From the NCBI GenBank assembly GCA_016931155.1, contig JAFGFJ010000006.1:220389-284388 (forward strand): a DNA stretch of 64,000 bases, in the 5' to 3' direction. Origin of the DNA: Candidatus Dojkabacteria bacterium (GTDB taxonomy: Bacteria; Patescibacteriota; Dojkabacteria; B142; JAFGFJ01). This document shows positions 5,948-41,985 of the stretch, one piece after another; within the stretch, counting starts at the first letter, position 1, and each line of letters begins with the position of its first letter. The notes under the pieces were generated by a model, which was not told the origin of the DNA, did no database searches, and worked only from the letters and a program-made list of their open reading frames with translations. The position numbers and the translations under genes were made by a program.

Positions 5948-6000
5948 TGGAATAATTATGGTAGAATCAGTCAATTAACTTCGACTTATGGTCATACGGA

Positions 6001-17848: not shown

Positions 17849-17851
17849 AGA

Positions 17852-22717: not shown

Positions 22718-22741
22718 TCTATTGATATATTATACCCAGTG

Positions 22742-24962: not shown

Positions 24963-24999
24963 TACGTCTTCGTTCTACTACTCTACAATAAGTTATGGA

Positions 25000-25731
25000 C
25001 TATTTACATTCTTCATCCTTGTTCTTATCAAGAATATAGTCCTTTATCTTCCAGTAATTATCTACTATTTTTTGATAGTTGTTAGCAAATATCTCCTGTA
25101 AATTACTGTCAGTTCTTAACTTTTCTTTAAGGTCTTGTAGATAGTTAATTAAATCAAAAAATAAGCAGAAGTTATTAACCAAAATCTCGTTCCTATGATA
25201 CCTTAAATGGCAATAACCTTTCCTGTTTTTTGCGATTTTGAAGTACTCAGATAGTTCCTCTAATGATTTAGGAGCATCGTGTTTTAAGTAATTAGACTGA
25301 AAGAACCACGACTCCTGTCTATCTTTCCTAGTTGCTCCTTTTCTTATAGTATCAATTATATGGGGTAGGGGACGGACATTATGGACTAGATCATGCCTAT
25401 AGACCTGCACAAGATAGCTCCTGTACCTTTTGTATTTTGAATTTACATATTTATCGTAAGGCATAAAGTCATTAAGTACTATTTTTATTCTTTCTGTTTG
25501 TTTTTTCCCTGTGTGAATATACATTAGAGAAGCAATGTGATCTGTAAAACAAAAAATATTCCTTGCTATAGTAAAAAGGCCTATTTGACTTTCTAATAAA
25601 GGGAAAATATCTCCTTTTAGTTGGTCTATTAAATCAGATACATATTCATAAGGTTGGAAACTTTTTCCTGGAAGAACGGCTAAATGAAATAGACCTTTAT
25701 CTTTGTTCACTACTGTAAGGTGTGTGGTCAT
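25000..25731 (-). CDS. hypothetical protein
   Basis: 243-aa ORF, first gene of the minus-strand string. No recognisable motif. Confidence 0.4.
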   Translation of the reverse strand: MTTHLTVVNKDKGLFHLAVLPGKSFQPYEYVSDLIDQLKGDIFPLLESQIGLFTIARNIFCFTDHIASLMYIHTGKKQTERIKIVLNDFMPYDKYVNSKYKRYRSYLVQVYRHDLVHNVRPLPHIIDTIRKGATRKDRQESWFFQSNYLKHDAPKSLEELSEYFKIAKNRKGYCHLRYHRNEILVNNFCLFFDLINYLQDLKEKLRTDSNLQEIFANNYQKIVDNYWKIKDYILDKNKDEECK

Positions 25732-25953
25732 GAAAAGGTGGAATAACTATAGAATTATACTCTAATGTACAAGCCTATAATTGAAGAGCAATGTTTTCCA
25801 TATATGAACTTTCTATGAGCCTTTTTATATTGTTTACGTTTATAGTAATCTCAGTAGATTGGTTCATGAACGAGTCTAATAAGTGACCCCACTACCAGGA
25901 AACTCGCCCTAAAAGACGCTTGCACTCCATAAATACTCGTGTTATTATCGATT

Positions 25954-27207
25954 ATGGTAATAAAAAGAGCAATCGAAAAAGAAATAGTCGAGCATCTCTC
26001 CTCACCAGAAATAACTCTCATAGTCGGGCCAAGGCAGGTTGGTAAAACTACATTGATAAATAAAATAGCCGAATCACTGAAGAACAAAGGGGAAAGTGTC
26101 TTTACACTCAACCTGGATATAGAAGATGATTTTGGTTTGCTTGAAAGTCAGTCAAGGCTTGTGAGTCAAATTGGACTCAATATAGGAAAGGATAAGGGAT
26201 ATGTATTCATAGATGAAGTGCAACGGAAAGAAGACGCAGGAAGGTTTTTCAAGGGAATTTATGACATGAAACTTCCTTACAAGTTTATCTTAACAGGTTC
26301 CGGAAGTGTAGAGTTAAAGGAAAAGGTTTCGGAATCGCTTACTGGGAGAAAAAAGATTTTTGAAATGAGGCCGATAAGTTTTTTCGAATTTATAGACTAC
26401 AAAACTCAATATCAGTATTCGGATAGATTGGCTTCCTTTTTCTCTCTCAAAGATCCAAGACTTGAACCTTTGTTTAATGAGTACATGCAGTTTGGCGGAT
26501 ATCCACGCGTTATGCTTGCGGACAGACTAGAGACAAAGCGTGCGGAAATGCAGGAAATATATAAAAGTTATCTAGAGAAGGACATTACGCAACTTCTGAA
26601 TATTCAAAAAGCAGAATCATTTAGCAAATTAATTACTTTACTATCAAGTCAGGCAGGTAAGCAGATAAATATAGAAGAATTAAGTACTACTCTCTCTCTC
26701 GATTCAAAAACAATAAAAAACTATTTGTGGTATTTAGAAAAGACTTACATAATAAAAGTCTGCAGACCGTATTTTACGAACCCAAGAAGCGAACTTGTTA
26801 AATCGTCAGTTTACTACTTTCTTGACCTTGGAATGAGTAACTATGCACTCAATAGATTTAGTAATTTTGATCTTACTTTACATGGAGGACAATTGTTCGA
26901 GAACTTTATATTTAACCACTTGATCAATAAATACTACAAAACTGATCCTACAATCAATTTCTGGAGAACAAAAGATGGAGCAGAAGTTGATTTTATCTTT
27001 AGGGTGGGAGCACAGGTAATACCGATCGAAGTAAAGTATAAGAAACTCTTAAAACCCACCGCAGGGCGCTCTTTGTATAATTATTTAGAAAAATACAAAT
27101 CTGCTGAAGCTCATATAGTAAACTTAACGCTGGATGAGGAAATAAAATCTAGGAAATCAAAACTCATATTCAGTAGTTATCCAAAATTTCTGTCTATGGA
27201 TATATAA
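25954..27207 (+). CDS. AAA+ ATPase of the AAA_14 / DUF4143 family
   Basis: Walker A GPRQVGKTTL, Walker B VFIDEVQ, and the typical ~400-aa architecture. The ATG at 25954 is preferred over the upstream GTG at 25939. Confidence 0.75.
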   Translation: MVIKRAIEKEIVEHLSSPEITLIVGPRQVGKTTLINKIAESLKNKGESVFTLNLDIEDDFGLLESQSRLVSQIGLNIGKDKGYVFIDEVQRKEDAGRFFKGIYDMKLPYKFILTGSGSVELKEKVSESLTGRKKIFEMRPISFFEFIDYKTQYQYSDRLASFFSLKDPRLEPLFNEYMQFGGYPRVMLADRLETKRAEMQEIYKSYLEKDITQLLNIQKAESFSKLITLLSSQAGKQINIEELSTTLSLDSKTIKNYLWYLEKTYIIKVCRPYFTNPRSELVKSSVYYFLDLGMSNYALNRFSNFDLTLHGGQLFENFIFNHLINKYYKTDPTINFWRTKDGAEVDFIFRVGAQVIPIEVKYKKLLKPTAGRSLYNYLEKYKSAEAHIVNLTLDEEIKSRKSKLIFSSYPKFLSMDI

Positions 27208-27210
27208 TAG

Positions 27211-27239
27211 TACCAAAATTCCTTCCACCAGCCACCCCA
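27211..27239 (+). repeat. att-like direct repeat copy A (TACCAAAATTCCTTCCACCAGCCACCCCA); last 15 nt identical to the 3' end of tRNA-His including CCA
   Basis: CCACCAGCCACCCCA at 27225-27239 equals 18423-18437. Lies 4 nt after the ATPase stop. Confidence 0.8.
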
Positions 27240-27404
27240 GACGCAATAAAACATAACAAACCTTCCAGAACGCTCTCCTGTTAATAGAATTCGAGGTTCG
27301 AATTTATAAAAAATCAAATATAAAAACACTTCTGTTAGTAATATTGCATTTAAAGACTGTTTAGAATATAATACGGAAGTGTATGTTATCTTAAGTAGTC
27401 AGAA

Positions 27405-28019
27405 ATGAGAAGAAAAACACTTTTTACAAATTTTATAAACACACCCTACTTTACAAAGCAGGATCTATTGGTTTTGGCTGATAAATTCAATATCTCTGAG
27501 ACAAGTATTAACACGTTAATTCAGAGATCTATCAAAAGCAAGGAAATCATCTCATTAAAAAGAAATTGTTATGTTAATAGAGAATTTTTTCTTAAGAATA
27601 GAGATAATCTAGAGTATAAGTTCTTTGTTGCCAATATATTGATAAAATCCTCGTATATTAGCCGAGAAACCGCTCTACAGTATTACGGACTACTTTCCGA
27701 AGCATCACTGAACTATTTTACTTCTACTACTATCAAGCTACCTAGAAAATTTGAGAAATCACTCGGTATTTTTGAATACAGAAATATTAAGGATGAACTT
27801 TTTAATGGATATAAGAGTGTAAGATTTTCGATTGGTGGAAATGAATATTCGTACCTAATAGCAGAACCCTACAAAGCAATATTTGATTATATATATTATC
27901 GTACAAGTAAAAGGTCAATATCTGAAGGATTACTTATGTCAGTAATGAATGAGCTCAGAATAAATTACCATGACCTTGAAAAGGATCAGCTAGATAAATT
28001 AATTAATTCTTTTAAATAA
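27405..28019 (+). CDS. AbiEi-like antitoxin / transcriptional regulator (type IV TA system), putative
   Basis: 204-aa protein immediately upstream of, and abutting, an AbiEii-type nucleotidyltransferase gene (stop at 28017-28019, ATG at 28020). N-terminal wHTH-like region. Assignment is mainly by synteny. Confidence 0.45.
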   Translation: MRRKTLFTNFINTPYFTKQDLLVLADKFNISETSINTLIQRSIKSKEIISLKRNCYVNREFFLKNRDNLEYKFFVANILIKSSYISRETALQYYGLLSEASLNYFTSTTIKLPRKFEKSLGIFEYRNIKDELFNGYKSVRFSIGGNEYSYLIAEPYKAIFDYIYYRTSKRSISEGLLMSVMNELRINYHDLEKDQLDKLINSFK

Positions 28020-29285
28020 ATGTTAATAGATAAATTAAAACTAAAATTTAAAGAACTTAAAGAGGAAGGTAAAACGGAAGATTCAATATTAATAGCCTTA
28101 AAGGAAATTTTGCAGCACTATATATTGAACTTCATTTACACAAGCAAAAATTATTCTTATTTGACAATGTATGGTGGGACTGTTTTAAGAATAGGATATA
28201 ACCTTCCTAGAATGTCTGAAGACTTAGATTTTCAGACACATAAGAAATTAGATTTAGAGAAATTTACCGAGGAAATAAAGAGGTATTTTAAGGATAATTA
28301 CGCATTTGATATAGAAGTAAAGCACAAAAGCTCACCAGAGAATAATACAAGCACATTATTTATAAAGTTCTTCACGTTAAAAGAACTAGGTTTTAAAAAA
28401 TTAAAGCTTGAAAGACTTCATGTCAAAGTAGATGTAAACTACTTTGAAACGGCAAATAAATTTGTAAACGATACTGTACCAGGTGGTAAAGGCACGGAGT
28501 TAGCCTATACAATTAAAACTTATCCCCTTTCTACTCTAATGGCGAGTAAGGCTGTTGCATTCCTAAAGAGAGATGCCAGAGGTATAGGTGATATTTTAAC
28601 GAATGTAAAATCAAGAGATGTATACGATATGATGTGGTATATGAATCGAGGAACTATGCCTGATTTGGAATATCTTAAAGCAAAAGATATAAGCTTTGAC
28701 ACATTTTTAGATTTTAGAGATAAAGTCAAGATTAGAGCAAACAAGATTGAAGACAACGCCTTTAGAAATGATTTATCTCAGTTCTTTTATGATAGAAATG
28801 AACTTGAAAACTGGCTATCTAGCTGGAGACCAAAATTTATGCAGTTATTAGATTCATATAAAGTATATGAAGTTGGGGAATTAGAGAGGATTTATGGGCA
28901 TGTAGATTTCAGTACAGATAATAGATCTATTTCTTATACATTTAATGCTTTAGACAATCAAAATCAGAATGTGATCTTTAGTGTGACACTTACAGATTAC
29001 TGGTTCGAGTTTAGAGATATAAAAATAAATAGAGGTCACAGAGTAGCAGAGATTGAAGATAAGGCTGAGAAAGGAAGAGGTGAAATGACTGAGTTAGACT
29101 ATGAGTATATTGGACTCTTCTACACAAAGATTAAAGATTACTTAAAGCGAAATAAGAACGTGGTTTTCCAGAATGAATTTGAAACTAAAGTAATACGGGC
29201 TTCAGCAGACAATTTAGATCCAAAAAAGCAGATTTATCTTGATAAAAGGCTTTTGGAGAAGATAGATTTTGAAGAATTATTGTGA
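28020..29285 (+). CDS. AbiEii-family nucleotidyltransferase toxin (DUF1814) with a long C-terminal extension
   Basis: LTMYGGTVLRIGYNLPRMSEDLDFQ matches the (K)GGTAL...R.SEDIDF signature of AbiEii/DUF1814. 421 aa versus ~300 aa typical. Confidence 0.6.
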   Translation: MLIDKLKLKFKELKEEGKTEDSILIALKEILQHYILNFIYTSKNYSYLTMYGGTVLRIGYNLPRMSEDLDFQTHKKLDLEKFTEEIKRYFKDNYAFDIEVKHKSSPENNTSTLFIKFFTLKELGFKKLKLERLHVKVDVNYFETANKFVNDTVPGGKGTELAYTIKTYPLSTLMASKAVAFLKRDARGIGDILTNVKSRDVYDMMWYMNRGTMPDLEYLKAKDISFDTFLDFRDKVKIRANKIEDNAFRNDLSQFFYDRNELENWLSSWRPKFMQLLDSYKVYEVGELERIYGHVDFSTDNRSISYTFNALDNQNQNVIFSVTLTDYWFEFRDIKINRGHRVAEIEDKAEKGRGEMTELDYEYIGLFYTKIKDYLKRNKNVVFQNEFETKVIRASADNLDPKKQIYLDKRLLEKIDFEELL

Positions 29286-29326
29286 ATATTAATGAACAAC
29301 TCTCAAGAGAATACGGTTTAACCAAC

Positions 29327-29349
29327 GTTCCAAAATTCCTTCCACCATT
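29327..29349 (+). repeat. att-like direct repeat copy C (GTTCCAAAATTCCTTCCACCATTA), degenerate
   Basis: Shares GTTCCAAAATTCCTTCCACCA with copies A and B. Sits 42 nt after the AbiEii stop. Confidence 0.6.
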
Positions 29350-29437
29350 AAGCCTAAATTTCCCTTTAGTTGTAGCAGAAGCTTTTCAATTTTACTGAGA
29401 ATTGATAATCTACTGATGAATATGTCGATCAAACAGA

Positions 29438-30598
29438 ATGAATGAAACTGAATCAGGTATAAAAATAAGTACGGCTGATTTCAGACTACTCCAACCCTAT
29501 TCAGACTATTTAACGAAAGCTGTGAGTCCTTTGTGGGGAGAAGTTTCTTCATCTAAACCTGGAGATTCGCTTTTCGAACTTGGGCGGATCGCGTTATCCA
29601 ATAAGGCTTTAGTCGAAGATATCCATGTTTCTCACTTGAGAGATACAATTATAGAGAATGAAGTCAATCCATACCTGGTCAAGTTAGTCTCCAATTTTGA
29701 CAAGTACAGTGAATTGATAGACAAGATCCAGAGAAAAAAAACTGACTTAACTTGGGATGATGAGCGACTTCATGAGGATGGATTACCTGAGAATCTTTTT
29801 GAAGAACACAGGGCATATCAGAAGGAACTGTATCATCCAACACCAGTATGCTTACGAGATTTACATATAGAGAGTTTGGACATTCTGTGTGAATATGAGG
29901 TTAATCCCAAATTAAGAAAATTTATCAATAAAATTGGTGGGATTGCTCTGTTCGAAGAACTAATTGCTCTTGCAACTAAGCAAGACTCTGTGGACTTGGA
30001 TAGAGTAGTCCCCTTTACTGACCTCGCCTACCAAGGACTAAATAAATGGTCAGTCCTATTAGAGCCTGTTTCGCCACCTCTTTTTTGTTTGCTCAGTAAA
30101 GATAATAGATTACTTCTGAAAGAACAGAATCCCAAGTTGCTAGAAATTCTTGAAAGATTTTTTCTACTAGAATTTGGACCTCATAATTCATCAGTGTATG
30201 TTGTTCCTTCGGTCGAAAATCCAACAGGATCTTTGTCAAGGGAGTACGAATTAGATTTATTATATTTAGAGCAACATAAAATGAAAGAAGAGGAATATAT
30301 TAACCTTCTTGGTGAATTATGTATGAGTTTTCATAAAGTTAAAGAAGGGACGCGAAGTTACACCTTTAAGGGAGTAGAATTTAGAAAATTGTCTATTTCT
30401 CATTATGATGAGAGATCCCCATTCACTGGGGAAATACCAGAACAGGAAGATTTTGATTTGGTTCTATACAAGGGAGGGAAAGAGGTTGGGGTAATTCCGA
30501 GTTGCTGGAAATACTTTGCGAGTGAGGGTATTTATGAGTCACCTGGTGCAAGATTCTCTTTTAGCCCTAGAAAGATTCTCCCCTTATTTGCTAAATGA
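29438..30598 (+). CDS. hypothetical protein (386 aa), single-gene module between two att-like repeats
   Basis: Good-length ORF. No motif recognised. Flanked by repeat C upstream and repeat B downstream. Confidence 0.45.
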   Translation: MNETESGIKISTADFRLLQPYSDYLTKAVSPLWGEVSSSKPGDSLFELGRIALSNKALVEDIHVSHLRDTIIENEVNPYLVKLVSNFDKYSELIDKIQRKKTDLTWDDERLHEDGLPENLFEEHRAYQKELYHPTPVCLRDLHIESLDILCEYEVNPKLRKFINKIGGIALFEELIALATKQDSVDLDRVVPFTDLAYQGLNKWSVLLEPVSPPLFCLLSKDNRLLLKEQNPKLLEILERFFLLEFGPHNSSVYVVPSVENPTGSLSREYELDLLYLEQHKMKEEEYINLLGELCMSFHKVKEGTRSYTFKGVEFRKLSISHYDERSPFTGEIPEQEDFDLVLYKGGKEVGVIPSCWKYFASEGIYESPGARFSFSPRKILPLFAK

Positions 30599-30616
30599 GA
30601 AGTTCAAGGGAAATAG

Positions 30617-30644
30617 TTCCAAAATTTCTCCCACCAGCCACCCC
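30617..30644 (+). repeat. att-like direct repeat copy B (GTTCCAAAATTTCTCCCACCAGCCACCCC); 16 nt identical to the tRNA-His 3' end
   Basis: TCCCACCAGCCACCCC at 30629-30644 equals 18421-18436. Lies 19 nt after the 386-aa gene stop. Confidence 0.8.
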
Positions 30645-30684
30645 GCAAAATTTCTAGGTCCATTATCAATAAAGGCCTTCTTGT

Positions 30685-31611
30685 TCATTTTGTTATTTGC
30701 TTCGAGTTCTGTAACATACTTTTTACTTTAGCGAGAGCAGAAGAATCGGATTTGCATTTGATAAGGTAACTATATGCTGAAAACAAATGAAAAATGTAAT
30801 ATCCTCGCACTTTTTCCATTGTTACTGGTACATTCATAATTTTTTCATATTGTTTAACAAAAGTGATGAAGTTCTCAGAAATGTCATAGAAATTAAACCA
30901 ATACATGATTATCCCCAGTTCTGCATGATTGTCTCCAATACGATGACTTTCAAAATCCAGTACAGCAGTTACATTAGTGTCCTTTACCAATATATTCTGA
31001 GGATTGTAATCCCAATGCAACGGGCATAACATCGGAAGTGAATTTGAGATTAAGCCAACTAATTCTTGAATTTTACTGTCAAAATATTTATGTGCATTTG
31101 AATCTATAATGCCCTGTCTTGTGAGTAACATTAGGTCTGGGCGCCATTTTTTTACTGCAGATATCCAGTCTGAATTGTTGTTGCATGGAGCATTCTCATT
31201 TTGCCATATCTCTTTGTTGGGTAGTTTGTGAAGTCCAGCAAGATTTCCAGCAATACTGTGAAGTAATTTCTTAGAGACAGTCTTATCAATTATTCTATAA
31301 TAGAAGGTCTCTCCTTCCAGGTACTCCTGGATTAACAAACTAAACTCAGTAGTAAAACAGAAATCAAGGAATAATGTTTTGGGAACAGGATACTTATATC
31401 GAATGAGCAAATCATCAATGTCGGTTGATCTTTTAATTCTCTCCTTGTAACTGATGGGAAAGATTTTACAGATGTACTTTTTGCCAGTACTTAATGCTGC
31501 AACTTTAAATACTTGACTTTTTGAGAGACCAGTATCGAATTTGTTTATTGAAAGGGGAGGCGAGGGGCTCTTCAAAAACTTACTAAAACCTTCAGTAATG
31601 ATATCTTCCAT
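30685..31611 (-). CDS. protein-kinase-like phosphotransferase (APH / choline-kinase fold)
   Basis: Brenner/catalytic-loop motif HWDYNPQNILV and DFE(S) in place of DFG. N-terminal ATP-binding lobe. 308 aa. Confidence 0.55.
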   Translation of the reverse strand: MEDIITEGFSKFLKSPSPPLSINKFDTGLSKSQVFKVAALSTGKKYICKIFPISYKERIKRSTDIDDLLIRYKYPVPKTLFLDFCFTTEFSLLIQEYLEGETFYYRIIDKTVSKKLLHSIAGNLAGLHKLPNKEIWQNENAPCNNNSDWISAVKKWRPDLMLLTRQGIIDSNAHKYFDSKIQELVGLISNSLPMLCPLHWDYNPQNILVKDTNVTAVLDFESHRIGDNHAELGIIMYWFNFYDISENFITFVKQYEKIMNVPVTMEKVRGYYIFHLFSAYSYLIKCKSDSSALAKVKSMLQNSKQITK

Positions 31612-31652
31612 AAACTATTATAGCGAATATTCTGTAGAGGAATGCAGGATTA

Positions 31653-31677
31653 GTTCCAAAACTCTTTCAAGGAGGGC
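31653..31677 (+). repeat. possible degenerate att-like repeat copy E (GTTCCAAAACTCTTTCAAGGAGGGC)
   Basis: About 17 of 23 positions match the repeat consensus. Sits just upstream of the kinase-like gene start. Confidence 0.3.
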
Positions 31678-31943
31678 TAAGGTTTATGAGAGTGGCAAGA
31701 TGACCCTAAAGTTCCGCAAACTTCACGAAATTCGTTCATAACACCTGTACCAAATTTGGGGGTCTTGACATACTTAAAGCCGAGGCTATAAAAAGCAATA
31801 CAAAACGTATATAATCAAATTATCAAAAGGGACTGCTTGATTGTTTTACCGACAAAACCTGATCATTACTGTCACAAAGTACCTAGACAAAATTTGTACC
31901 GAAAAACTGTGATTGATCCCTAGCTAACTCTTTAAAATGCTTT

Positions 31944-32519
31944 ATGGGTAAATATATTATTCCATTCTACTTCTTTTTCCTATTTATAACCGGAATACTC
32001 GTTGGTCCACAGATGGTCTTTTTGTTGGTCGGCTGGGTCGGTATATTTGCTTTCATTAAAATTAAAGGTTTTGATAGTGGTCTTCCTTCCAGATATGAAA
32101 AAGTATTTACTGCCACCGCATTGCTCTATCCACTTATAGAAACAGCAATAAAATTTGTAATTGAAAGGGATTTGATTCCTTATTCATGGATCTGGCTTAA
32201 TAGGATCGAACATTTTGGTTTCAGTGCTTTTCTTGTAATACTTATCTTTCCTGTTATTAGACGATTCTATATAAAGCTGGACTTGATCGGTCAGATAGTA
32301 TTTGTAGTTGGAATTATTGTGTTTCTTGGAAATATTAATGAATTTGTTGAATACCTGGTACGTTTAATGCTTAATCTTCGCTCAAAATTTGGACATTACT
32401 ATGAAGATACTATTATTGACTTGTTTGTAAATATGTTGGGAGCATTTGCGGGTTTTGGCCTGTTAAAACTTGTACTCGATAAAAAGAGAAAGAATAAGGA
32501 GAGAAATAATCTAAGATAA
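31944..32519 (+). CDS. hypothetical integral membrane protein (about 5 TM)
   Basis: 191-aa hydrophobic ORF with a basic C-terminal tail. Confidence 0.45.
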   Translation: MGKYIIPFYFFFLFITGILVGPQMVFLLVGWVGIFAFIKIKGFDSGLPSRYEKVFTATALLYPLIETAIKFVIERDLIPYSWIWLNRIEHFGFSAFLVILIFPVIRRFYIKLDLIGQIVFVVGIIVFLGNINEFVEYLVRLMLNLRSKFGHYYEDTIIDLFVNMLGAFAGFGLLKLVLDKKRKNKERNNLR

Positions 32520-33096
32520 TTTCTTTTAGAAGACCTATCAATTTAGGAGCATTTTTAAATGCGTAGTGGCGTGTGAGTTATTTTTGTCGTAATGCACTTT
32601 ATATTATTTTTTGAAGTAGCTTTGAAGTAGCTTTGAAGTAGCAAGTTATTCCATCAATAGAATATATCTTTAATGAAAGAAGGTGAGGAAACGCTTTTAC
32701 TATAAAAGTGTTTAAAGCTTGAATGTTTAGAGGTAGTGGGGGGAATGTATTGATATGGCAGTGTTTTGTATTATAATCACTCATACAATTCCAATTATAA
32801 TGCCATCGGAAGTTGATAGACAAAATAATACTGATGAAATAAGTGAATTCATGAATCAACGGGCGGGGGAGTTTTCTCATTTAGGTTCAGATCATACAAG
32901 AGAAGGATATATTCGCTTATCAGAAGATATGTTTATTGGTATATGTAGGTTATGTCCTGATTCACCAAAAATTCCTCCTGGAACTCTTCGTTATTTAGGG
33001 CAGGATTTAGGTAACAGCTGCTTAAGCAGTATTACCCATAGTGAAGAATTTTAGGCTAATAAACCTGAAAGCTATGATAGGATTGATATTTCTTAT

Positions 33097-33948
33097 GTGA
33101 GGAATGGAAATGGCTATTACTTTTTTTATAGGGGAGCTTTTCATGATGCTTATGACAGATATATTGAAGCTCAAGTGGTAACAATGGATACTTCTTCACC
33201 AATTACTCAGGAGGAGATGTTACATGCAGGAGAAGAAATTCTCAGAGAAAACGTATTGGATCTGGAGACAGTTGAGCCACATTTGGATAGAGCAGCAATA
33301 CTGGCAGTACACAGCTCGATAGTTTTAGATTCGATTTTGACGATGGCTGCAGTTGAAATGGGTGAGGAAGAATATTTGTATTGGCATGATAGAGCAAAAG
33401 AACAAACGGTGAAAGATGCTTTGGAGATAAGTGCAAAGAAAAGGGAGTCGCTTACTTTAATGGGGAAAAAGGTAAATGAAAGATTTATTTATCCATTTAT
33501 CACCAGAGAATACTTAGAAATTATATTGAATAACTTTCAAGAAATGTACATTGATTTAATGTTTTGCGGGAATATGAATCGAGAGAAGACAAGAGTTAGC
33601 GAGGATATGGCAAGTATGCTTGAGCTCGTATTGCTATCTTATGGTGAAGAACATAGAGGATTGCTACAGCAACTATTACATATTGAAGATGAGGTCAATG
33701 GGAAAATTGTTAATGTTGCGGATCAAGCAATAGAATTTGGCAAAAGATTGCTTCAATATGCCAAGGGAACCGCCCTTGAGGTAGCCATAGTAAGGCATCA
33801 TAAGCCTTTAACTAGACCACTAAAAGAACTTAGCTTAGACTACAAGATAGGGGACTTATGTGCAGTATCAGATATTGACAAGTTATCCAATTTGGGACTG
33901 CCTGCAATGTTAACCTTGAGAGATCTTAAAAGAATAGGTTCTTTATAA
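33097..33948 (+). CDS. hypothetical protein (GTG start)
   Basis: 283-aa ORF. No recognisable motif. Abuts the next gene. Confidence 0.4.
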   Translation: MRNGNGYYFFYRGAFHDAYDRYIEAQVVTMDTSSPITQEEMLHAGEEILRENVLDLETVEPHLDRAAILAVHSSIVLDSILTMAAVEMGEEEYLYWHDRAKEQTVKDALEISAKKRESLTLMGKKVNERFIYPFITREYLEIILNNFQEMYIDLMFCGNMNREKTRVSEDMASMLELVLLSYGEEHRGLLQQLLHIEDEVNGKIVNVADQAIEFGKRLLQYAKGTALEVAIVRHHKPLTRPLKELSLDYKIGDLCAVSDIDKLSNLGLPAMLTLRDLKRIGSL

Positions 33949-33957
33949 TTTCTTTTT

Positions 33958-35544
33958 ATGGTGAGTTCTATTTTGAAGGAAAAAGTAAGAATGATACTTA
34001 AGAACAAAATGCTTCTTATCTTAATCATATCTGCCCTGGTTTTAATTCCCCTTGTGACGGCAATCTCTGTTTATGCAATTTATAAGAATAATGAACGGAA
34101 ACAAAATAAAGAGAAGATTGAACAACAGGTATCACAAAATGAAACAACAAATGAGGAAGTAGAAGTGTTTACAGTACCTACTCCTCCCGGCATATGCGAA
34201 TTAGCAGTTAATAAGCTCTCAACAACAGTATCCCAAAAAATTGATGATAAAAGTAGAAAAGTATCAGTTGATTATTCATTTAAACAGGATGAGGAAGTCG
34301 ATTGTTTAGATCCAATAAAGGCCATGATAGATTCACTTACCTCCTTCAAGTATGATAACGGCTCTGAAGTGAATTTCCCGGGACCGGAAATAACGAAAGA
34401 TAAGATAATATTTGACCTATCAGAAGTGAAAAAACTTGGTAAAGGCAAGCTTTATTGGTTAGTTCAGTATGATGACAATTCGAATTCAATCGAAATTGGA
34501 AGCGTGGAAATTTTGGGTGCTGAGATCAGACAACCAACTACTACACCGACACCAACAACTGCACCATCATTAACAAAGGTGAAATACGAAGTTAAGGTTT
34601 TGTCGCTTTCATATTTCCCGATAAAGGAGGGGAAACTTGATACTACTATCTTGAATAATTCCTGGGGTGAGTACAATATGACGCTAGCACAAGTAAGACA
34701 AAAAGTTAGTGCAACTCAAAGCGAACTTATTTCTACTTTGGAAGAGGGCAGTAGATATAGGGCATATAAAGATGTTTCTGCTCCAATTGTAGTGGACTAC
34801 AATATACATAGTGCCAAAGAATATCTTGCCGCTGTACCTATTTCTACAAAGCCTAATCCATGGGATGGAAGTGTGTACATGACTGACTACAGGAAAATTC
34901 TTGAGGATCACGGGATATGCAACCTTGTTGAAAATCAGGGGGTTAAAGAGGTGTGGCTTTGGAGTTATACAGGTATTGGAAAATCCGGATGGGAATCCAA
35001 CTTTGCAGGGAAGAATGGCAGAGATATAAGTAATAGTGACAGAGATCCAGGTGATATGCCTATATGTGGGAAGAGCTACACAGTATACGAGTATAATTAC
35101 GGACGTGGTACCTCAGAAGCAACCGAAGATCACATGCATCAGTTTGAAGCAATATTTAATTTCGTAGATAGTAACCTGTTTTGGAATAAATTTGTGGGGT
35201 ATCACCCTTCAAATGGATCATATTCAGGGGATTCCAATAGAAGATGTGGATGGGCTCATTATCCGCCAAATGGAAGGCATGATTACGATTGGACTAATCA
35301 GAATTATGTTCAAAGCGATTGTATGGACTGGAATCCGGACTCTTTAGGTAAAACAACAACAATGAATTGCTCCAGGTGGAATTGTGATAGCAGAAGATTT
35401 TTCATATTCTGGATGCAAAGCCTGCCGGGTTATGGAAATACTATTACTTACCAGGGCAAGCAATTTAAGAATTGGTGGGGCTTCATTGCAGATTTTGATA
35501 ATGAAATGAATAAAGGACAAAGCCTAACGTTCCAGCAGAATTAA
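33958..35544 (+). CDS. secreted/membrane-anchored hypothetical protein (528 aa) rich in Trp/Asn/Cys in the C-terminal region
   Basis: N-terminal TM (MLLILIISALVLIPLVTAISVYAIY). PTTTPTPTT linker. C-terminal Trp/Cys-rich domain. Confidence 0.5.
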   Translation: MVSSILKEKVRMILKNKMLLILIISALVLIPLVTAISVYAIYKNNERKQNKEKIEQQVSQNETTNEEVEVFTVPTPPGICELAVNKLSTTVSQKIDDKSRKVSVDYSFKQDEEVDCLDPIKAMIDSLTSFKYDNGSEVNFPGPEITKDKIIFDLSEVKKLGKGKLYWLVQYDDNSNSIEIGSVEILGAEIRQPTTTPTPTTAPSLTKVKYEVKVLSLSYFPIKEGKLDTTILNNSWGEYNMTLAQVRQKVSATQSELISTLEEGSRYRAYKDVSAPIVVDYNIHSAKEYLAAVPISTKPNPWDGSVYMTDYRKILEDHGICNLVENQGVKEVWLWSYTGIGKSGWESNFAGKNGRDISNSDRDPGDMPICGKSYTVYEYNYGRGTSEATEDHMHQFEAIFNFVDSNLFWNKFVGYHPSNGSYSGDSNRRCGWAHYPPNGRHDYDWTNQNYVQSDCMDWNPDSLGKTTTMNCSRWNCDSRRFFIFWMQSLPGYGNTITYQGKQFKNWWGFIADFDNEMNKGQSLTFQQN

Positions 35545-35563
35545 TAGGTTTGTGTACAAATTT

Positions 35564-35613
35564 GTATAATCGATCTTGACTCTTCGGGCCTTGCCCCTAG
35601 AGTCTGAGTAAAT
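35564..35613 (+). ncRNA. conserved hairpin element L2 (GTATAATCGATCTT - GACTCTtcGGGCcttGCCCctAGAGTC - TGAGTAAATA); homologous to 6783-6837 and 40206-40260
   Basis: Perfect nested stem (outer 6 bp, inner 4 bp). Flanks are about 75% identical to element L1. Directly downstream of the 528-aa gene and directly upstream of repeat copy D. Could be a terminator-like RNA element or a small repeat family. Confidence 0.45.
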
Positions 35614-35618
35614 ATTGA

Positions 35619-35647
35619 TTTCCAAAATTCTTCCCACCATCCGCCCG
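35619..35647 (+). repeat. att-like direct repeat copy D (TTTCCAAAATTCTTCCCACCATCCGCCCG), degenerate
   Basis: Shares TTCCAAAATTCTTCCCACCA with copies A, B and C. The 3' part has diverged from the tRNA-His sequence. Confidence 0.55.
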
Positions 35648-35752
35648 ATTTATAATAGCTTCCAGTTGGGATGTTGAGTGAAATATTTTGATTATTAATC
35701 TTTCCATTATTTTATCTTATTGCTAAGCTTTGGCAGAAATTATTACTGAATT

Positions 35753-36199
35753 ATGAGCGACAAAAGAAATAGTCCTATGGACATTGTAAACGAGCTAGAA
35801 CGTTTGTATGGAACAAAAGAACACCCCAAAGTATCAGCTGTAGAAAATGTTCGAGAGTTAATGAATAGTGGAGTGGAGGCATTGACGATTGAAGGTCTGG
35901 ATAAGGAAAAGTATCTTGTTCCTGAGGCAGTTGGTGGAGATGAAAGACTTATAGATCCGAATTTTGAAATTACTCAAGATCTTTTTAAACAAAGAGTAAG
36001 GGAAGCTTGCCATGAAGTATATCCTGGCTATCCGCCTCTTGATGCAAGGTTGAAATTATCAAAGAAGGATGCGCACGACTTATCTGAAAGGGCAAAGACA
36101 GGAGAATTATCTATTCAAGCTATTCATAATGGAACAAATGCATGCTATGAACACCCAAATAGAGACTCAGGTAATGTTTATTTTGAATTTGAAATGTAA
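35753..36199 (+). CDS. hypothetical soluble protein (148 aa)
   Basis: ORF with no TM segment and no recognised motif. Followed at 36219-36245 by a weak, interrupted att-like repeat (GAGAAAATTTCATAAACCTCCCAATCA). Confidence 0.4.
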   Translation: MSDKRNSPMDIVNELERLYGTKEHPKVSAVENVRELMNSGVEALTIEGLDKEKYLVPEAVGGDERLIDPNFEITQDLFKQRVREACHEVYPGYPPLDARLKLSKKDAHDLSERAKTGELSIQAIHNGTNACYEHPNRDSGNVYFEFEM

Positions 36200-36277
36200 C
36201 AGATCCTTTTCCAGATGTGAGAAAATTTCATAAACCTCCCAATCAATATGACTTTTTGTGTCCCTAAAGAATATTTA

Positions 36278-37228
36278 CTAGAACTTTTTAATCAGCAGGA
36301 TTACTTCAGATATAATCCACAGAACATAAATACCAAGAAGAAAAAAACCTTCTTTTCTTGTTATTTCTCTTCCGGAAAAAGCTATCAGGGCAAATACAAT
36401 CAGGGTCAAAGCTAAAACCGCCATTGCCGGAACAAGAACTTGAAAATATTCAATCTTGTGAGGACTCAAAAGTGAAAGCAATCCAAGTGTTGGGACATTG
36501 ATCATCGCGCTCCCTATGAAATTTCCGACGGCAAGTTTTTCTTTTTCCAGGGTATTACTTCTAATAAGTAGTGTCAGTTCGGGGATGTTTGTTCCAATAC
36601 CAAGCATTAATAAGCCAATAACTGCATTAGGTATTCCAAAGAAAAGGGCGATGCCTACAGTTTTTTCTACAAGAAGATGCGAAGAAATAATTAGTCCTGC
36701 AAGACCAAGCAAACCTCCGGCATAAAGCTTCCAGTTCTGCTTTTTTCTGTATTTCTTTGTTTTGTGATGAGAGACAACATTTTTTACAATAAATAGTATG
36801 AGCAAAATGTAGCTGGTTATCAGAATCAATCCATCAGTAGGCACGAGTTCTCCATCTGCAGTGAGAATAACCATCAAACCAATAAGAATAAGTGATAGTA
36901 GAAGAAAAGAAAAAGAATAGCTTCCTTTAAAGGGAATACTTTTATGCTTTATTGCATTCAATCCTATTATCAAACTTAGGATTACAATTGTTGCACCAAA
37001 GAGGTTGCCTATCGAAATACCCGGTACACCCTCAAGAGAAGAGTTTACTGCCACTGACATTTCAGGCAATGAAGAAGCGATTGCCAAAACTAAAAATCCG
37101 ATCAGGAAAGGACTCAGTCTTGCTTTTTGTGCGATTTGTACAAAGGTGTCTTCCAATAGATCTGCTGATTTTATCAGCAGGTAAAGAAGACCAAAAGACA
37201 ATAATATATCAAGTGCAATTCTTTCCAT
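36278..37228 (-). CDS. Ca2+/cation antiporter (CaCA / YrbG family)
   Basis: Two alpha-repeat signatures GNLFGATIVILSLIIGL and GNFIGSAMINVPTLGLL in a 10-TM protein. Confidence 0.75.
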   Translation of the reverse strand: MERIALDILLSFGLLYLLIKSADLLEDTFVQIAQKARLSPFLIGFLVLAIASSLPEMSVAVNSSLEGVPGISIGNLFGATIVILSLIIGLNAIKHKSIPFKGSYSFSFLLLSLILIGLMVILTADGELVPTDGLILITSYILLILFIVKNVVSHHKTKKYRKKQNWKLYAGGLLGLAGLIISSHLLVEKTVGIALFFGIPNAVIGLLMLGIGTNIPELTLLIRSNTLEKEKLAVGNFIGSAMINVPTLGLLSLLSPHKIEYFQVLVPAMAVLALTLIVFALIAFSGREITRKEGFFLLGIYVLWIISEVILLIKKF

Positions 37229-37497
37229 CGCTCATTATAACAACAAATACAGAATTGAGAGAAGGGGAATTACTCAACTTCTCTTGGAATAAGTAGAGTT
37301 GGAAGAATAATTGTTCTAGATAACGTTTACTAAATCGTATCTAAACAGGTTCTTAAGAAATTCTTTCAGTTATATACCAACTAATTCTCAGTAAATGAGT
37401 GAACAATTTGTAAAGAAATACCGTAATATCTATACTGTTAGCATAATTGTTTCCAGGTGTCTTATAACTTAAAAGAAAAAATGAGTAATAATTTGAG

Positions 37498-40212
37498 ATG
37501 AAGGATTTGTCGAAGGCGAAATTAATTATTATTGTTTTCATACTCGGTCTTTTTGGGCTTGCACTTTATTCTATTCCTGCGATAAAGGATGCAGAAAGAA
37601 ACTATGGATTTGGAATAAAACCAGTAGGAACAAAGGTACTTAGTGCATTTAGTTGGCCGACAGATATGCAGTGGTCCGTTTTGACCAGGAATGGAGCGGT
37701 TCTTGTAGATCATGAGGATAGGGCAAGCTGTGAGGATCCGACAAGAAATACCGCAATCTCAGGTAGTCTCGATATTGGTTCGCAGTCACAATGTTCTTCA
37801 GGACAGTACAATCCTGGCAATAATGGGCAGCCTGGAGCAAAAGCAAAAAATACTTATAGTGCAGGTTTTTATTACGATGACCCAAATAGAGATTCTATTG
37901 GCTACTCAAATTTGGCTGATGACTCTGCATATTTTCGGTTTAGGCTTGCTGGAAACCCGATGCAGACAAACCAAAATCTGGGGCTTCAGAATTACTACTG
38001 GTGGATCGTATTAGATGACGATGGAAATGGAACACCCGATTTTTATATAGTTTTAGATGGAAATGGTCCCAGACCTGTAGAAACTCTCACTTTGAAATAC
38101 GAAACAACTGGAGACAGTAGTCCAACTGGTGAACCTGATATTGTTTCTTACGGGAATCCGATTGGAAATGGACTTGTGAGATCTGTTCTGACACCGGACA
38201 ATGGATCCATCGGAGATACGACTGAGTACTTTCTCGATATTCAATTACCACTTGGAGATTTTGATGATATAAACGGAATTCAGCAAATCTATCAAGGAAC
38301 TAAAACATATTTGAAGTATTCTACTTCCGCCAGCGAAGATGATCCAGTTCAGGGGGATTATATATTACCAGGTAATGCTTTTGCTGATCCTGTTGTTTTT
38401 TCCTTAAGTAATTATTATGCGGTAAAGAGTGTCGATGATATAAATGGTGGGTCATTTGAACCTGGCGATATAGTTGAGTATACAGTGACAGTAAATAATT
38501 CCGGGAACAACTTAACAGATATTAATCTTTCAGATGTAATTCACGAAGAAGGGGTTTTTGAAGAAAATGCATACGGTTCTGGCTCAGGAATCCAGGCAGT
38601 AATCAATGGGAATACTTATAATTTGAGCAATATTTTTGATCAGCCTGATGCGGGAGGCTGTTATGTATACTCTAACTGTAGAGCAGATTTCTCTAATAAC
38701 ACAATCAATTTTTATAGCGAAATTATCAATATTGCTGGTTTGGGAGTACAGTCTTTTGATTCCTTCTCGATAAAGTATCGGGTTACATATTTATCTGAAG
38801 GAAACTATTCAAATCAGGCTATACTGAAAAGTAATGAAATAAATGGACAGAGGTATAGTGATGATCCTTCAGTTGATGATTCTGTAGATTGTATTGTTGC
38901 AGGTGTGATAAATTGCAATGATGGAATAACGGGAAATGATGATCCAGTGGTCATTAATAATGTACCAACGCCAACGCCAACGCCAACGCCAACGCCAACG
39001 CCAACGCCAACGCCAACGCCAACACCAACGCCAACACCAACACCAACACCAACGCCAACACCTAAAGCTGACTCTGGATCAACTTCCAAATCTACCACCA
39101 CCCTCGTAATTAGTGAAATGCCAGAGACACATAAAGGCTATTATGATGGAGAGCTTATAGTTAGTTTGAAAGCCGATCCACCTCCTGATTTGACACTTTC
39201 GTTTGGGGATGTTGTGACCTATACCTTGATAATAAAGAATACTTCAAGTTCAGCAATTACAGGTGTTACTGCAATAAACCAGATCCAACAGGGTCTTTTA
39301 TACGTTCCCGGGAGTTCGATTTTAAATGGAGTACTACTAACAGATAAGGAAGACAAGGATTCAGGTTATTACGATAAGGAGAATAGTATCTTCCAGGTTA
39401 TGGTTGGAGACATAGCTGGGGAATCTGAAATTAGTCTGGTGTTTAAGTTGGAGCTTGATGATCTGGAACTTACAGGTAAAGAAGTATTAAAAAAGGTAAT
39501 GATAAAGACAGAAAAACTCGGTTTTATCTACTCAAATGAAATCAAACACTTAGTTGATCTATCAACTATTTCTAAAGGAATTGATGAAACATCAATAAGC
39601 ACAAAAGATATTATAAAGTGGATGGCAGATATTAAGAACATGGGGTTACTATTAATCATTCTTTTTTCCCCGGTTCTAATTGTATTGCTCCTGTACAATC
39701 GCAAACGTGGTTTTCTTTACTTGACAGCTCCAAACCCAAAGGGAATTAACACGCCGATTGAGTCTTTCAACTTCATGGGGGTGAATTCTGAATCTGACAT
39801 TCAAATAACTGAGTGTCTTGAGTATTCTTTGTGTTCTCTTGTTGAGATGGATTCATCCTGGGGTCGAATCATAAAGTATGACAATAGCCCATGGATAGTT
39901 GTTATTAGCAATAAAACGCAATATAAGAAAAATGATAATGGAGGAACTCTCTTTATCTTATCCAAGAAAGATTTTAATTATAAGAGTGGTATATGGACAA
40001 CTAACAAGGAGGTGAAGCCAATTGAAAAATTATTTTTTCATACTGGTCTTGAAGCTTTGATGAGTAATAAAATCCAGGTATTTTTTGTGAATAAAGCAGA
40101 CTTTGATGTTGTGATCAAGGATGACGAAAAAGCTATTTGCAAGCTAAAGGAGCTTAAATCAGAAAATGAAAAAGAGGGGATCAATTCAATAAACCTGAAA
40201 TCACTTTTTTAG
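37498..40212 (+). CDS. large cell-surface protein with two DUF11 (conserved repeat) domains, a (PT)16 linker, a TM segment and a C-terminal cytoplasmic domain
   Basis: Signal anchor. DUF11-like GDIVEYTVTVNNSGNNLTDINLSD and GDVVTYTLIIKNTSSSAITGV. The (PT)n linker is encoded by a CCAACG microsatellite. Hydrophobic MGLLLIILFSPVLIVLLLY followed by NRKRG. Confidence 0.65.
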   Translation: MKDLSKAKLIIIVFILGLFGLALYSIPAIKDAERNYGFGIKPVGTKVLSAFSWPTDMQWSVLTRNGAVLVDHEDRASCEDPTRNTAISGSLDIGSQSQCSSGQYNPGNNGQPGAKAKNTYSAGFYYDDPNRDSIGYSNLADDSAYFRFRLAGNPMQTNQNLGLQNYYWWIVLDDDGNGTPDFYIVLDGNGPRPVETLTLKYETTGDSSPTGEPDIVSYGNPIGNGLVRSVLTPDNGSIGDTTEYFLDIQLPLGDFDDINGIQQIYQGTKTYLKYSTSASEDDPVQGDYILPGNAFADPVVFSLSNYYAVKSVDDINGGSFEPGDIVEYTVTVNNSGNNLTDINLSDVIHEEGVFEENAYGSGSGIQAVINGNTYNLSNIFDQPDAGGCYVYSNCRADFSNNTINFYSEIINIAGLGVQSFDSFSIKYRVTYLSEGNYSNQAILKSNEINGQRYSDDPSVDDSVDCIVAGVINCNDGITGNDDPVVINNVPTPTPTPTPTPTPTPTPTPTPTPTPTPTPTPTPKADSGSTSKSTTTLVISEMPETHKGYYDGELIVSLKADPPPDLTLSFGDVVTYTLIIKNTSSSAITGVTAINQIQQGLLYVPGSSILNGVLLTDKEDKDSGYYDKENSIFQVMVGDIAGESEISLVFKLELDDLELTGKEVLKKVMIKTEKLGFIYSNEIKHLVDLSTISKGIDETSISTKDIIKWMADIKNMGLLLIILFSPVLIVLLLYNRKRGFLYLTAPNPKGINTPIESFNFMGVNSESDIQITECLEYSLCSLVEMDSSWGRIIKYDNSPWIVVISNKTQYKKNDNGGTLFILSKKDFNYKSGIWTTNKEVKPIEKLFFHTGLEALMSNKIQVFFVNKADFDVVIKDDEKAICKLKELKSENEKEGINSINLKSLF

Positions 40213-40272
40213 TATAAACAATCTTAAACCTACGGCTGAGACATGGCACCTCAGTTATTATATTTATTCCGA

Positions 40273-40764
40273 TCACTCTTGTTCCTGTACATTTTTGAGA
40301 TTAAAATCTTGAAGACCTTTTTGTCCGAAGACACTTACAATTTCCGATTTTATAAAATCAATCGCAGAGGTAAGATTACTTCTTTCTGTAAGGCTTAAAG
40401 TATGATTCTTTTCCTGTTTTATTTTCGCTACAGAGTGTAGCATTCTAATAAGTAAAACTGCATCCTCTGTTGCACCTGTAGCGAGTTTCTCTTTTGAAAT
40501 ATCTGCAAGATTACTCATTGTTTCATCTTCTATATTGATTTTTTTATTCAAGTCTTTCAGTACTTTTGCTAGATCTTTTTTTGAAAGAGGATGTCTCATG
40601 CCGAGCTTATTTGCCTGGTCTGTAGGAACGGAAACGTAGAGACCATTTTCGAAAGCTATTTCGTAGTATTCTTTGTCTACTCCTTCAACCTTTTCTTTAT
40701 AAATTCTTTTAATTTTACTTATTCCATAAAGAGGGTAGATGATTGTCTCGCCTTTTTTGTACAT
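40273..40764 (-). CDS. CarD / CdnL-family RNA-polymerase-binding transcription regulator
   Basis: N-terminal Tudor-like block MYKKGETIIYPLYGISKIKRI...YYEI. ATG at 40764 preceded by an AGGA Shine-Dalgarno-like motif. The longer listed ORF starts with TTG. Confidence 0.7.
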   Translation of the reverse strand: MYKKGETIIYPLYGISKIKRIYKEKVEGVDKEYYEIAFENGLYVSVPTDQANKLGMRHPLSKKDLAKVLKDLNKKINIEDETMSNLADISKEKLATGATEDAVLLIRMLHSVAKIKQEKNHTLSLTERSNLTSAIDFIKSEIVSVFGQKGLQDFNLKNVQEQE

Positions 40765-40791
40765 AAAATTTATCCTAATGAATAAACTCAA

Positions 40792-41985
40792 TTAAACAAA
40801 CGTAAGTGCTTTACCAGTATTATTCGCTCTTCCGGTTCTTCCTATCCGATGAACGTAGTCCTCATAAGTCTTTGGTAATTCGTAGTTAATCACATGACTT
40901 ACTTGTGGAATATCAAGACCTCTTGCGGCTACATCAGTTGCTACCAGAATGTCAATCTTTCCCTCTTTGAACAAGCTAAGAGCTCTCTGCCGCTGTGACT
41001 GACTTTTGTTTCCGTGGATGCATTCAGCTCTTAAACCTCCTTTGTTGAGTTCAACCATAAGTCTTTGAACACCATGTTTTGTCTGTCCAAAAATTAGTGT
41101 TCTAGTAAAGTCTTTCCTTATAAGTAACTCACGGAGAGTATCAAGCTTTTTGGACTTGTCCAATACACGCACAATATCCTGATCAACATTTTCTGCAGTA
41201 TCCCTTGTCTTTACGGAAACTGTTACTGGCTGGTTTGAGTGCTCCCTTATAAGTGTTTTGATTTTTTCATCAACTGTTGCCGAAAAAAACAATGACTGTC
41301 TTTGTTTTGGAAGCGAGCCTATAAGGAATTTGATGTCTTTTGAAAAACCCATATCAAGCATTCTATCAACCTCATCAAGAACAATACTACGGAAAGTTGT
41401 CAAATTTATTGCTCCTCTGTTTATTAGGTCAACGAGTCTTCCTGGTGTTCCTATCACGAAATTACAATTTCTTCTCAGATTCGAAAGTTGTTTCCAAATG
41501 CTCGTCCCTCCAATACAAATAGCTGAAAATATACCAAGTTGAGTTGTAAGTCCTTTTAGTTCTGAGTCAATCTGTAAAGCAAGTTCTCGAGTTGGAGCAA
41601 TGATCAAAACTTTTTCTGATTTGTTATTAATTATTTTATTGATTAAGGGAATCAAAAATGCCAGTGTTTTTCCCATTCCTGTATTTGCAATTCCGATTAA
41701 ATCTTTCCCTTCAAGCAAATAGGGAATTGATTGATCCTGAATTGGCATAGGCTCCTCAAAATTCTTTTTTTTAATATTTACCTTGAGAGTTTCGCTTATG
41801 TTGAAATCATCAAATTTATGCTGAGCAATATATTTTTCAGTCGTGACCGGGGAAGCCCTATTGATAAATCTGGCTATGTCTATCTTGCTCTCCCCTGACT
41901 GTCTACGTTTAGGTCTCCGTCCATAACTGCTCCTGTTGCGACCATATACACCTGAACCCCTGTGATTGTAAGCACGTTGATACAC
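40792..41985 (-). CDS. DEAD-box ATP-dependent RNA helicase
   Basis: Q-motif F...PMPIQ, motif I ANTGMGKT, motif II DEVD, motif III SAT, motif VI HRIGRTGRA. Arg/Gly-rich N-terminal tail. Confidence 0.9.
   Translation of the reverse strand: MYQRAYNHRGSGVYGRNRSSYGRRPKRRQSGESKIDIARFINRASPVTTEKYIAQHKFDDFNISETLKVNIKKKNFEEPMPIQDQSIPYLLEGKDLIGIANTGMGKTLAFLIPLINKIINNKSEKVLIIAPTRELALQIDSELKGLTTQLGIFSAICIGGTSIWKQLSNLRRNCNFVIGTPGRLVDLINRGAINLTTFRSIVLDEVDRMLDMGFSKDIKFLIGSLPKQRQSLFFSATVDEKIKTLIREHSNQPVTVSVKTRDTAENVDQDIVRVLDKSKKLDTLRELLIRKDFTRTLIFGQTKHGVQRLMVELNKGGLRAECIHGNKSQSQRQRALSLFKEGKIDILVATDVAARGLDIPQVSHVINYELPKTYEDYVHRIGRTGRANNTGKALTFV

Follow-up and report, generated by a model that had tools for sequence, protein, structure and literature searches.

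What is the short hairpin sequence that closes several transcription units in this Dojkabacteria genome, and do its copies belong to one family? The window, by which the whole 64-kb stretch of DNA analysed here is meant, was initially annotated with three such elements of about 50 nt, which were proposed to represent a small structured RNA or attenuator, a REP/MITE-like repeat, or a part of a cassette boundary signal. To our knowledge, almost nothing is known about transcript ends and about non-coding or repeated DNA in the ultra-small genomes of the CPR/Patescibacteria. If the element marks the ends of transcription units and supplies stop codons, it provides a handle on both transcript ends and repeated DNA; if it is merely a decaying selfish repeat, its value is confined to annotation. 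The DNA covered comprises the window plus 5.5 kb upstream and 5.2 kb downstream, out of a contig of 559,650 bp. The same DNA has also been assembled in the Logan run SRR13394437.

A family of four repeats

Four homologous copies of a hairpin repeat of about 60 nt, hereafter called L, are found in the approximately 75 kb made up by the 64-kb window and the flanking contig sequence:

L1, 6781 to 6838, + strand: full-length copy; repeat-family core 6785-6834; 78.7 bits with the covariance model R1
L2, 35557 to 35614, + strand: repeat-family core 35561-35610, 80% identity ungapped over 50 nt; 68.1 bits with R1
L3, 40205 to 40262, + strand: degenerate copy; repeat-family core 40209-40258, 62% identity; 60.8 bits with R1
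L4, L027:4809-4866, on the downstream Logan contig, at a distance of about 3.3 kb from the last base of the window: sequence TGTTTTAGTATAACCGATCCTAAGCCTACGGGTGAAACCCGTAGAGTCTCTGT

L1 and L2 are identical at 40 of 50 positions without any gap, which bears out, at 80%, the colinear alignment of about 75% identity that had been described. This is also the best ungapped match of L1 elsewhere in the window, against a mean of 27.5 and a maximum of 30 in 100 dinucleotide-preserving shuffles; the alignment signal thus stays when the control proposed for it is applied. When L1 alone was used as an nhmmer query, L2 was recovered with E=1.1e-5 and L3 with E=0.0041. A profile built from L1 and L2 only recovers L3 independently (E=0.0099), by means of its left half only. 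In that half, 27 of 30 positions are shared between L1 and L3 (TTTTTAGTATAAnCnATCTTAAAyCTACGG), and past it L3 diverges, CTCAGT excepted. Both flanks had been considered as common to all three elements: the left one is, but the right half of L3 has been replaced, save for the same CTCAGT.

The homology of the three elements of the window is established by the repeat grouping, the shuffle control and nhmmer, and the family extends beyond them. The fourth copy, L4, matches the profile of L1 and L2 with E=3e-9 and scores 75.1 bits with the covariance model, L4 itself being among the model sequences. Neither nhmmer nor the covariance model detected a fifth copy inside the window. The identity among the copies ranges from 57 to 76%, and they are spaced 4.6-29 kb apart. 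The family is genuine, and L3 is a true but half-degenerate relative.

In the alignment of the four copies, the unit is composed, in this order, of a T-run, TAGTATAA, yCGATCyTAA, a GC-rich stem-loop and the right flank, and it starts about 12 nt further left than was first stated. The TAGTATAA segment places stop codons in two reading frames; its TAG position reads TTG in L2, and a stop follows four codons later in all four copies. The stem has the consensus CTACGGGy / rCCyGTAG, with 8-9 bp and a GAA loop (CTT in L2), and is followed by AGAGTCTCAGT as the right flank, for which the alignment gives the consensus AGAGTCTCwGT. The best conserved part is formed by the unpaired flanks, which exceed the stem in conservation. 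The unit is also sharply bounded: in the alignment, the neighbouring sequence on either side is unrelated between copies. Terminal inverted repeats are absent; within 40 nt on either side only the arms of the central hairpin form inverted repeats, and no dyad symmetry was found in L outside its small stem. No target-site duplication differing between copies was found, and in L2-L4 the left end does not recur at the right. L1 carries AGTATAA at both ends, in direct and not in inverted orientation. The left AGTATAA is invariant in all four elements, and therefore belongs to the unit and is not a target duplication. The unit contains, in addition, a -10-like hexamer (6789-6794, 35565-35570, 40213-40218 and L027:4817-4822).

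The hairpins of the three window copies are the following:

L1 hairpin, 6805 to 6825, + strand: TCTACGGGC-GAA-GCCTGTAGA, 9 bp including one G.U pair, GAA triloop
L2 hairpin, 35578 to 35604, + strand: GACTCT-TC-GGGC-CTT-GCCC-CT-AGAGTC, 6+4 bp
L3 substitute hairpin, 40234 to 40256, + strand: GGCTGAG-N9-CTCAGTT, a weak hairpin of 7 bp, -7.1 kcal/mol

Folding confirmed the perfect nested 6+4-bp hairpin that had been noticed in L2, and corrected the stem of L1, taken to be of 8 bp, to 9 bp including one G.U. The L2 stem lies in the register of that of L1; two middle pairs are lost, and the base has been extended by two changes on the 5' side. L4 possesses a perfect stem of 8 bp with a GAA loop. In L3 the family stem is lost, and the substitute hairpin re-uses the conserved CTCAGT of the right flank, with an A/T-rich tail behind. 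The position is occupied by a hairpin in every one of the four copies, L3 achieving this by a different pairing. In L1 and L4 the stem itself has CTAC...GTAG at its foot; at these positions L2 reads CTTC...CTAG, and L3 has only the left CTAC. The tails after the stem are GTCTCAGT in L1 (no T-run), TGAGTAAA in L2 and AGTCTCTG in L4.

When the folds were compared with those of shuffled sequences, only L2 appeared unusual (z of -4.0, against -0.5 for L1, -0.15 for L3 and -1.3 for L4). Across the four copies, 72% of the cells pair in register, and 17-48% do so when the partner is slid. A single pair is compensatory, C-G to U-A, another changes from G.U to G-C, and the covariation is not significant in comparison with shuffles (30/500 and 69/500). 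The proposal that the stems differ while base-pairing is kept is thus weakly supported, with pairing in register but one compensatory pair and no significance. A conserved structure is plausible, but the covariation does not demonstrate it. The majority of the gene ends in the region have no strong hairpin, and those of L1 and L2 are among the strongest 3' hairpins.

The L patterns were also searched in other genomes. In viral contigs, two patterns gave no matches and a looser one gave 5 chance matches. The GTDB species representatives, which do not include the source genome, yielded 8 single matches in unrelated organisms, without extended similarity. In JGI metagenomes, where the source genome is not included either, 13 matches were obtained, 11 of them corresponding to one unrelated coding region, and none was L-like. 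This absence elsewhere is weak evidence, because the exact patterns would miss even L4 (ATCCT for ATCTT). Four loci of other Dojkabacteria-like genomes (L024, L025, L028 and L029; 65 kb in total), to which homologues of the proteins flanking L gave access, contain no L-like sequence according to model R1; nhmmer was also negative in L024 and L025, and no comparable dispersed repeat was found in L024, L025 and L028. The nearest homologues of the DUF3160 and 528-aa proteins encoded beside L are 45-60% identical, and the upstream synteny is not conserved. The family looks restricted to a lineage, a view that is weakly established.

Other repeats occur in the window. An intergenic pair of direct repeats of 44 nt, with a spacing of 78 nt, is located at 17839-17960, upstream of a tRNA-Arg/tRNA-His pair; another, of 31 nt with a spacing of 61 nt, is located at 9347-9438, after the DUF3160 gene. 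Directly behind the L19 ribosomal protein ORF (61879-62478), a hexamer AAAGAC/AAAGAT is repeated (62486-62533).

Position at gene ends

In the gene map, all four copies are sense-oriented relative to the upstream gene, and each of them closes a transcription unit. The chance of a shared sense orientation is about 1 in 4, because the orientation is informative for L1 and L2 only. L1 is located 29 nt past the stop codon of a 94-aa ORF, the last in a long co-directional run (630-6751) which includes GatB, TsaE, TsaD, RecJ, DUF2085 and the 94-aa ORF itself, and the DUF3160 gene starts 207 nt after L1. L2 is located 12 nt past the stop codon of the 528-aa gene, which is the last in the run 31944-35544 and also the last of a tRNA-His island. 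As first reported, it is immediately followed by an att-like repeat, D, whose fourth copy (35615-35647) it adjoins within about 5 nt. L3 lies between convergent genes, one encoding a 904-aa surface protein and the other a CarD-like protein (40273-40791, - strand). L4 also lies between convergent genes, after the gene of a 1019-aa protein. The location downstream of genes for membrane or secreted proteins, emphasized initially, holds for the three window copies and not for L4, whose gene encodes no hydrophobic segment.

Two observations concern the surroundings of these genes. At a distance of 30 nt after L4, between the convergent genes, a far stronger hairpin follows, CATGGGGGTCTGTCTGAAGACCCCCATG, with -24.6 kcal/mol. 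The end of the RecJ gene (5940-5948) reads TAGTATAAT, the octamer-plus that opens L, with no L behind it; this may represent a target-like site left empty, or simply the -10 box of the following gene.

The relation of the repeat to the coding sequence is closer in L3 and L4, where the TAG of the unit ends the upstream gene:

TAG in L3, 40210 to 40212, + strand: stop codon of the 904-aa gene (37498-40212)

The TAG of L4 is likewise the stop codon of the 1019-aa protein gene. The last codons of the 904-aa gene, AAA TCA CTT TTT (KSLF), are also included in the stretch common to L3 and L4. No relationship between the 904-aa and the 1019-aa protein was seen by BLASTP (E=0.82), and yet both end in KSLF, encoded by the common AAATCnCTnTTTTAG. 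This common stretch implies that the element extends about 12 nt to the left and overlaps coding sequence. Gene calling demands caution, since the final codons of two proteins are here derived from a repeat. Within the same 904-aa gene, which encodes a DUF11 surface protein, a hexamer CCAACG/CCAACA is present about 20 times at 38953-39084 and gives rise to a (Pro-Thr)n linker.

Possible functions and origins

Most likely, L is an ordinary lineage-specific repeat or transcript-end signal, and no new kind of system. The reading preferred here, tentatively, is that of a lineage-specific dispersed repeat of the REP type whose hairpin marks or protects the 3' ends of mRNAs. The copies would have spread from one sequence, either by transposition in trans or by illegitimate recombination, and not by descent together with the genes. 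Through transcription, the upstream mRNA would carry the hairpin at its 3' end, as a structure that may block 3' exonucleases and/or bring about weak, factor-dependent termination. REP sequences in enterobacteria serve as 3' exonuclease barriers and/or in weak factor-dependent termination. The L hairpin probably does not act as a canonical intrinsic terminator, and the stop codons in two frames would make its insertion at gene ends tolerable. A function that any hairpin could fulfil leaves, by itself, the better conservation of the unpaired flanks unexplained, and the window ORFs that were compared with Pfam include no mobilising enzyme.

The conservation of the flanks above the stem would be explained if L were a selfish or neutral small mobile element, or a recombination scar, with no function for the cell. 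This is possible but rather unlikely. In such a case, an enzyme acting in trans and encoded at another place in the genome, e.g., a Y1/HUH transposase of the IS200/IS605 or RAYT type, would recognise the hairpin and the conserved single-stranded 5' flank. Copies inserted at gene ends would persist there, being harmless thanks to the stop codons at their 5' edge. Transposases of the Y1/HUH class (IS200/IS605, RAYT type) act on single-stranded DNA hairpins, and GAA triloop hairpins are very stable in DNA; GCGAAGC and T-GAA-A are GAA triloop hairpins of this kind, and the CTAC...GTAG stem foot of L1 and L4 also fits. The sharp boundary of the unit against unrelated sequence, its overlap with the ends of two unrelated ORFs, whose C-termini were rewritten to KSLF*, and the location of L2 inside horizontally acquired DNA point in the same direction. 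Against this, no transposase or RAYT-like gene is present among the Pfam-scanned ORFs of the window, terminal inverted repeats and a variable target duplication are lacking, and the identity of 57-76% between copies argues against recent activity. Even the degenerate L3 still has a hairpin, a hint that the structure is under selection.

An unlikely variant combines mobility with a contribution to the host gene: L would be a mobile, non-autonomous "gene-end cassette" of about 60 nt, of a kind not described before, which targets gene 3' ends in a CPR bacterium, brings stop codons and an RNA/DNA hairpin, replaces the C-terminus (KSLF*) and 3' end of unrelated genes and is mobilised in trans. Within this variant the mobiliser could be, e.g., a single-stranded DNA HUH transposase recognising the GAA-loop hairpin and the conserved 5' flank.

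The -10-like hexamer raises the question of whether L is a portable promoter, with a TATAAT as -10 box and a hairpin stabilising the 5' end of the transcript, which would drive the downstream gene or a small RNA. A perfect TATAAT follows a T-rich tract in L1 and L2, and L2 scores 10/12 as a sigma-70-type site (TTAATA, 18 nt, TATAAT). Moreover, the two copies with TATAAT (L1, L2) are followed by a co-directional gene, and those with TATAAA or TATAAC (L3, L4) by a convergent one. This match between hexamer and orientation, with n=4, could be due to chance or to selection against antisense transcription. However, half of the copies, L3 and L4, run towards the 3' end of a convergent gene, no -35 box is common to the copies (L2 only), and TATAAT is common by chance at 36% G+C. 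The -10-like hexamers of this DNA typically start 9-15 nt before the start codon, and the DUF3160 gene has its own TATACT at -12, while L1 is more than 200 nt upstream of it. No terminator is located behind L to delimit a small RNA. The promoter function is consequently improbable. As a separate observation, a TATAAT-like hexamer begins only 9-15 nt ahead of the start codon in many genes that are the first of their unit (e.g., 619-624, 7033-7038, 31617-31622, 37234-37239). Such a spacing suggests that this Dojkabacteria genome produces many leaderless or near-leaderless mRNAs.

The proximity of L2 to repeat D led to the proposal that L belongs to a cassette boundary signal. The island concerned, a composite defence island of about 17 kb, extends from the tRNA-His gene (18361-18437) to the last copy of D (18361-35647). 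At its proximal edge the following gene is located:

Large serine recombinase, 18372 to 19919, - strand: 3' end overlapping the tRNA-His gene

Other genes of the island are those of Vsr, EcoRII, an HTH-Dcm methylase, an AAA/DUF4143 ATPase and an APH kinase, as well as an AbiEii gene (a 421-aa ORF, with a 204-aa partner without Pfam match). Repeat D occurs as four direct repeats, at 27206, 29323, 30612 and 35615, which cut the island into four segments. It reads TTCCAAAATTCyTyCCACCA, followed by the sequence of the 3' end of tRNA-His; its core is the full CCCACCAGCCACCCC in two copies and degenerate in the two others (at 35615, CCCACCATCCGCCC). Repeat D corresponds to a tRNA-His 3' end that has been displaced, and it bounds the segments of the island, which looks like a composite of defence genes that arose through repeated integration at one tRNA.

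That L is a site-specific recombination or cassette-boundary site tied to repeat D and the serine recombinase is very improbable. L2 adjoins the fourth D copy at the distal edge of the island, as no more than the 3' flank of its last gene, with the recombinase at the proximal edge. Nevertheless, D copies 1-3 have no neighbouring L, and L1, L3 and L4 are located outside the island, among core genes. A search with a D profile recovered its own four copies and weak unrelated positions, none of them beside L1, L3 or L4, and an extension of L into repeat D was ruled out by the same search. The absence of dyad symmetry outside the small stem and of integron attC core sites argues in the same sense. 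Since repeat D accompanies L2 only, L is not a cassette-boundary signal; the check that had been proposed, on whether other copies neighbour att-like repeats, leaves L2 alone. A false lead is thereby removed: the L hairpins are not part of the boundary of the tRNA-His island.

It is hardly credible that L encodes or recodes a short peptide, either as a mini-ORF or because translation passes the TAG and stops at the in-frame TAA/TGA four codons further on. All copies do share one uninterrupted frame, with GAGGAGG 7 nt before an in-frame TTG in L1 and a stop four codons past the TAG (TTG in L2) position in 4/4 copies, but L2 and L3 have no start codon in this frame, non-synonymous codon differences exceed synonymous ones in every frame, and the predicted peptides have no recognisable feature.

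The suggestion of a small structured RNA or attenuator was not upheld either. There is no Rfam match, the covariation consists of one pair, and two of the four copies are unable to attenuate anything downstream because they face a convergent gene. Among the Rfam models, only tRNAs reach the gathering threshold, and permissive scans around L1, L2 and L4 stayed at chance level, with E above 0.5. The right flank, in which GTAG...CTCAGT resembles a D-arm, was considered as tRNA-like or as a pseudo-tRNA and rejected, as no tRNA model matches even at E up to 10. Further candidates were discarded: the stem motif is not comparable to a DNA uptake sequence (CTACGGG is not enriched); the target or IMH hairpin of a DGR does not fit, as the similarity does not reach further than about 12 nt ahead of the stop codon, and neither a variable/template repeat nor a reverse transcriptase was seen; and in a dif/Xer-type site the putative arms would be inverted partners, which they are not.

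Comparison with known systems

L shares with intrinsic terminators a GC-rich hairpin 0-50 nt from the stop codon, at the end of a unit and in sense orientation. It differs from them in that no U-tract is found behind the stem (tails AGUCUCAGUA and UGAGUAAAUA) and in its conserved flanks. A scan of 33000-41000 with the terminator consensus called neither L2 nor L3. Canonical terminators with hairpin and T-run do exist in this genome (45890-45922; after a 295-aa gene). The canonical intrinsic terminator was therefore rejected, on account of the missing U-tract, the negative consensus scan and the conserved flanks; the initial impression that L is more than a plain terminator was correct, given its lack of a T-tail and its conserved flanks.

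L resembles integron attC sites in that it is found where genes of unknown function end, and in having conserved flanks with a more variable stem. L has no inverted core sites (RYYYAAC / GTTRRRY) and forms no arrays, and its neighbour, repeat D, is a tRNA-His 3' end and no attC site. The large serine recombinase is the one recombinase observed, and an integron integrase was not seen. The palindromic elements of Rickettsia and the Correia elements of Neisseria are 100-150 bp in length, with terminal inverted repeats; a TA target duplication is produced by the Correia elements, and those of Rickettsia insert in-frame inside genes. L likewise is a small, non-autonomous repeat of a reduced genome, and it is joined to the ends of unrelated ORFs, whose C-termini it changes, but it comprises about 60 nt, has no terminal inverted repeats, and terminates the ORF instead of extending it in-frame.

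Of all the options initially considered, the REP/MITE-like repeat is the best fit in kind, as L is a short dispersed hairpin repeat. The features that define MITEs, terminal inverted repeats and target duplication, are absent, which separates L from MITEs. REP/BIME sequences are the repetitive extragenic palindromes of proteobacteria, which are mobilised by RAYT and stabilise the upstream mRNA; REP elements have a conserved GTAG/CTAC tetranucleotide next to the hairpin and occur in tens to hundreds of copies per genome. Like them, L is short, contains a small GC-rich imperfect palindrome and is dispersed at the 3' ends of transcription units. The palindrome is represented by stems of 9 bp (L1), 6+4 bp (L2) and 8 bp (L4), the stem of L3 being lost. 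The likeness extends to the lack of terminal inverted repeats and target duplication and, ambiguously, to CTAC/GTAG, which lies at the stem foot of L1 and L4, and a role of the 3' hairpin on the mRNA is plausible for L as well. The differences are also clear. L has long conserved non-palindromic flanks and occurs as singletons in one orientation, not as inverted pairs. It overlaps coding sequence and gives the stop codons in L3 and L4, so that it is not strictly extragenic. Only four copies are known, within about 75 kb; a RAYT gene was not observed, the scan of the window ORFs against Pfam revealed no Y1_Tnp-type gene, and the host is a member of the CPR and not a proteobacterium. L therefore resembles REP in anatomy and position without being a demonstrated member, and its unusual twist is that stop codons and C-terminal residues are supplied to unrelated genes.
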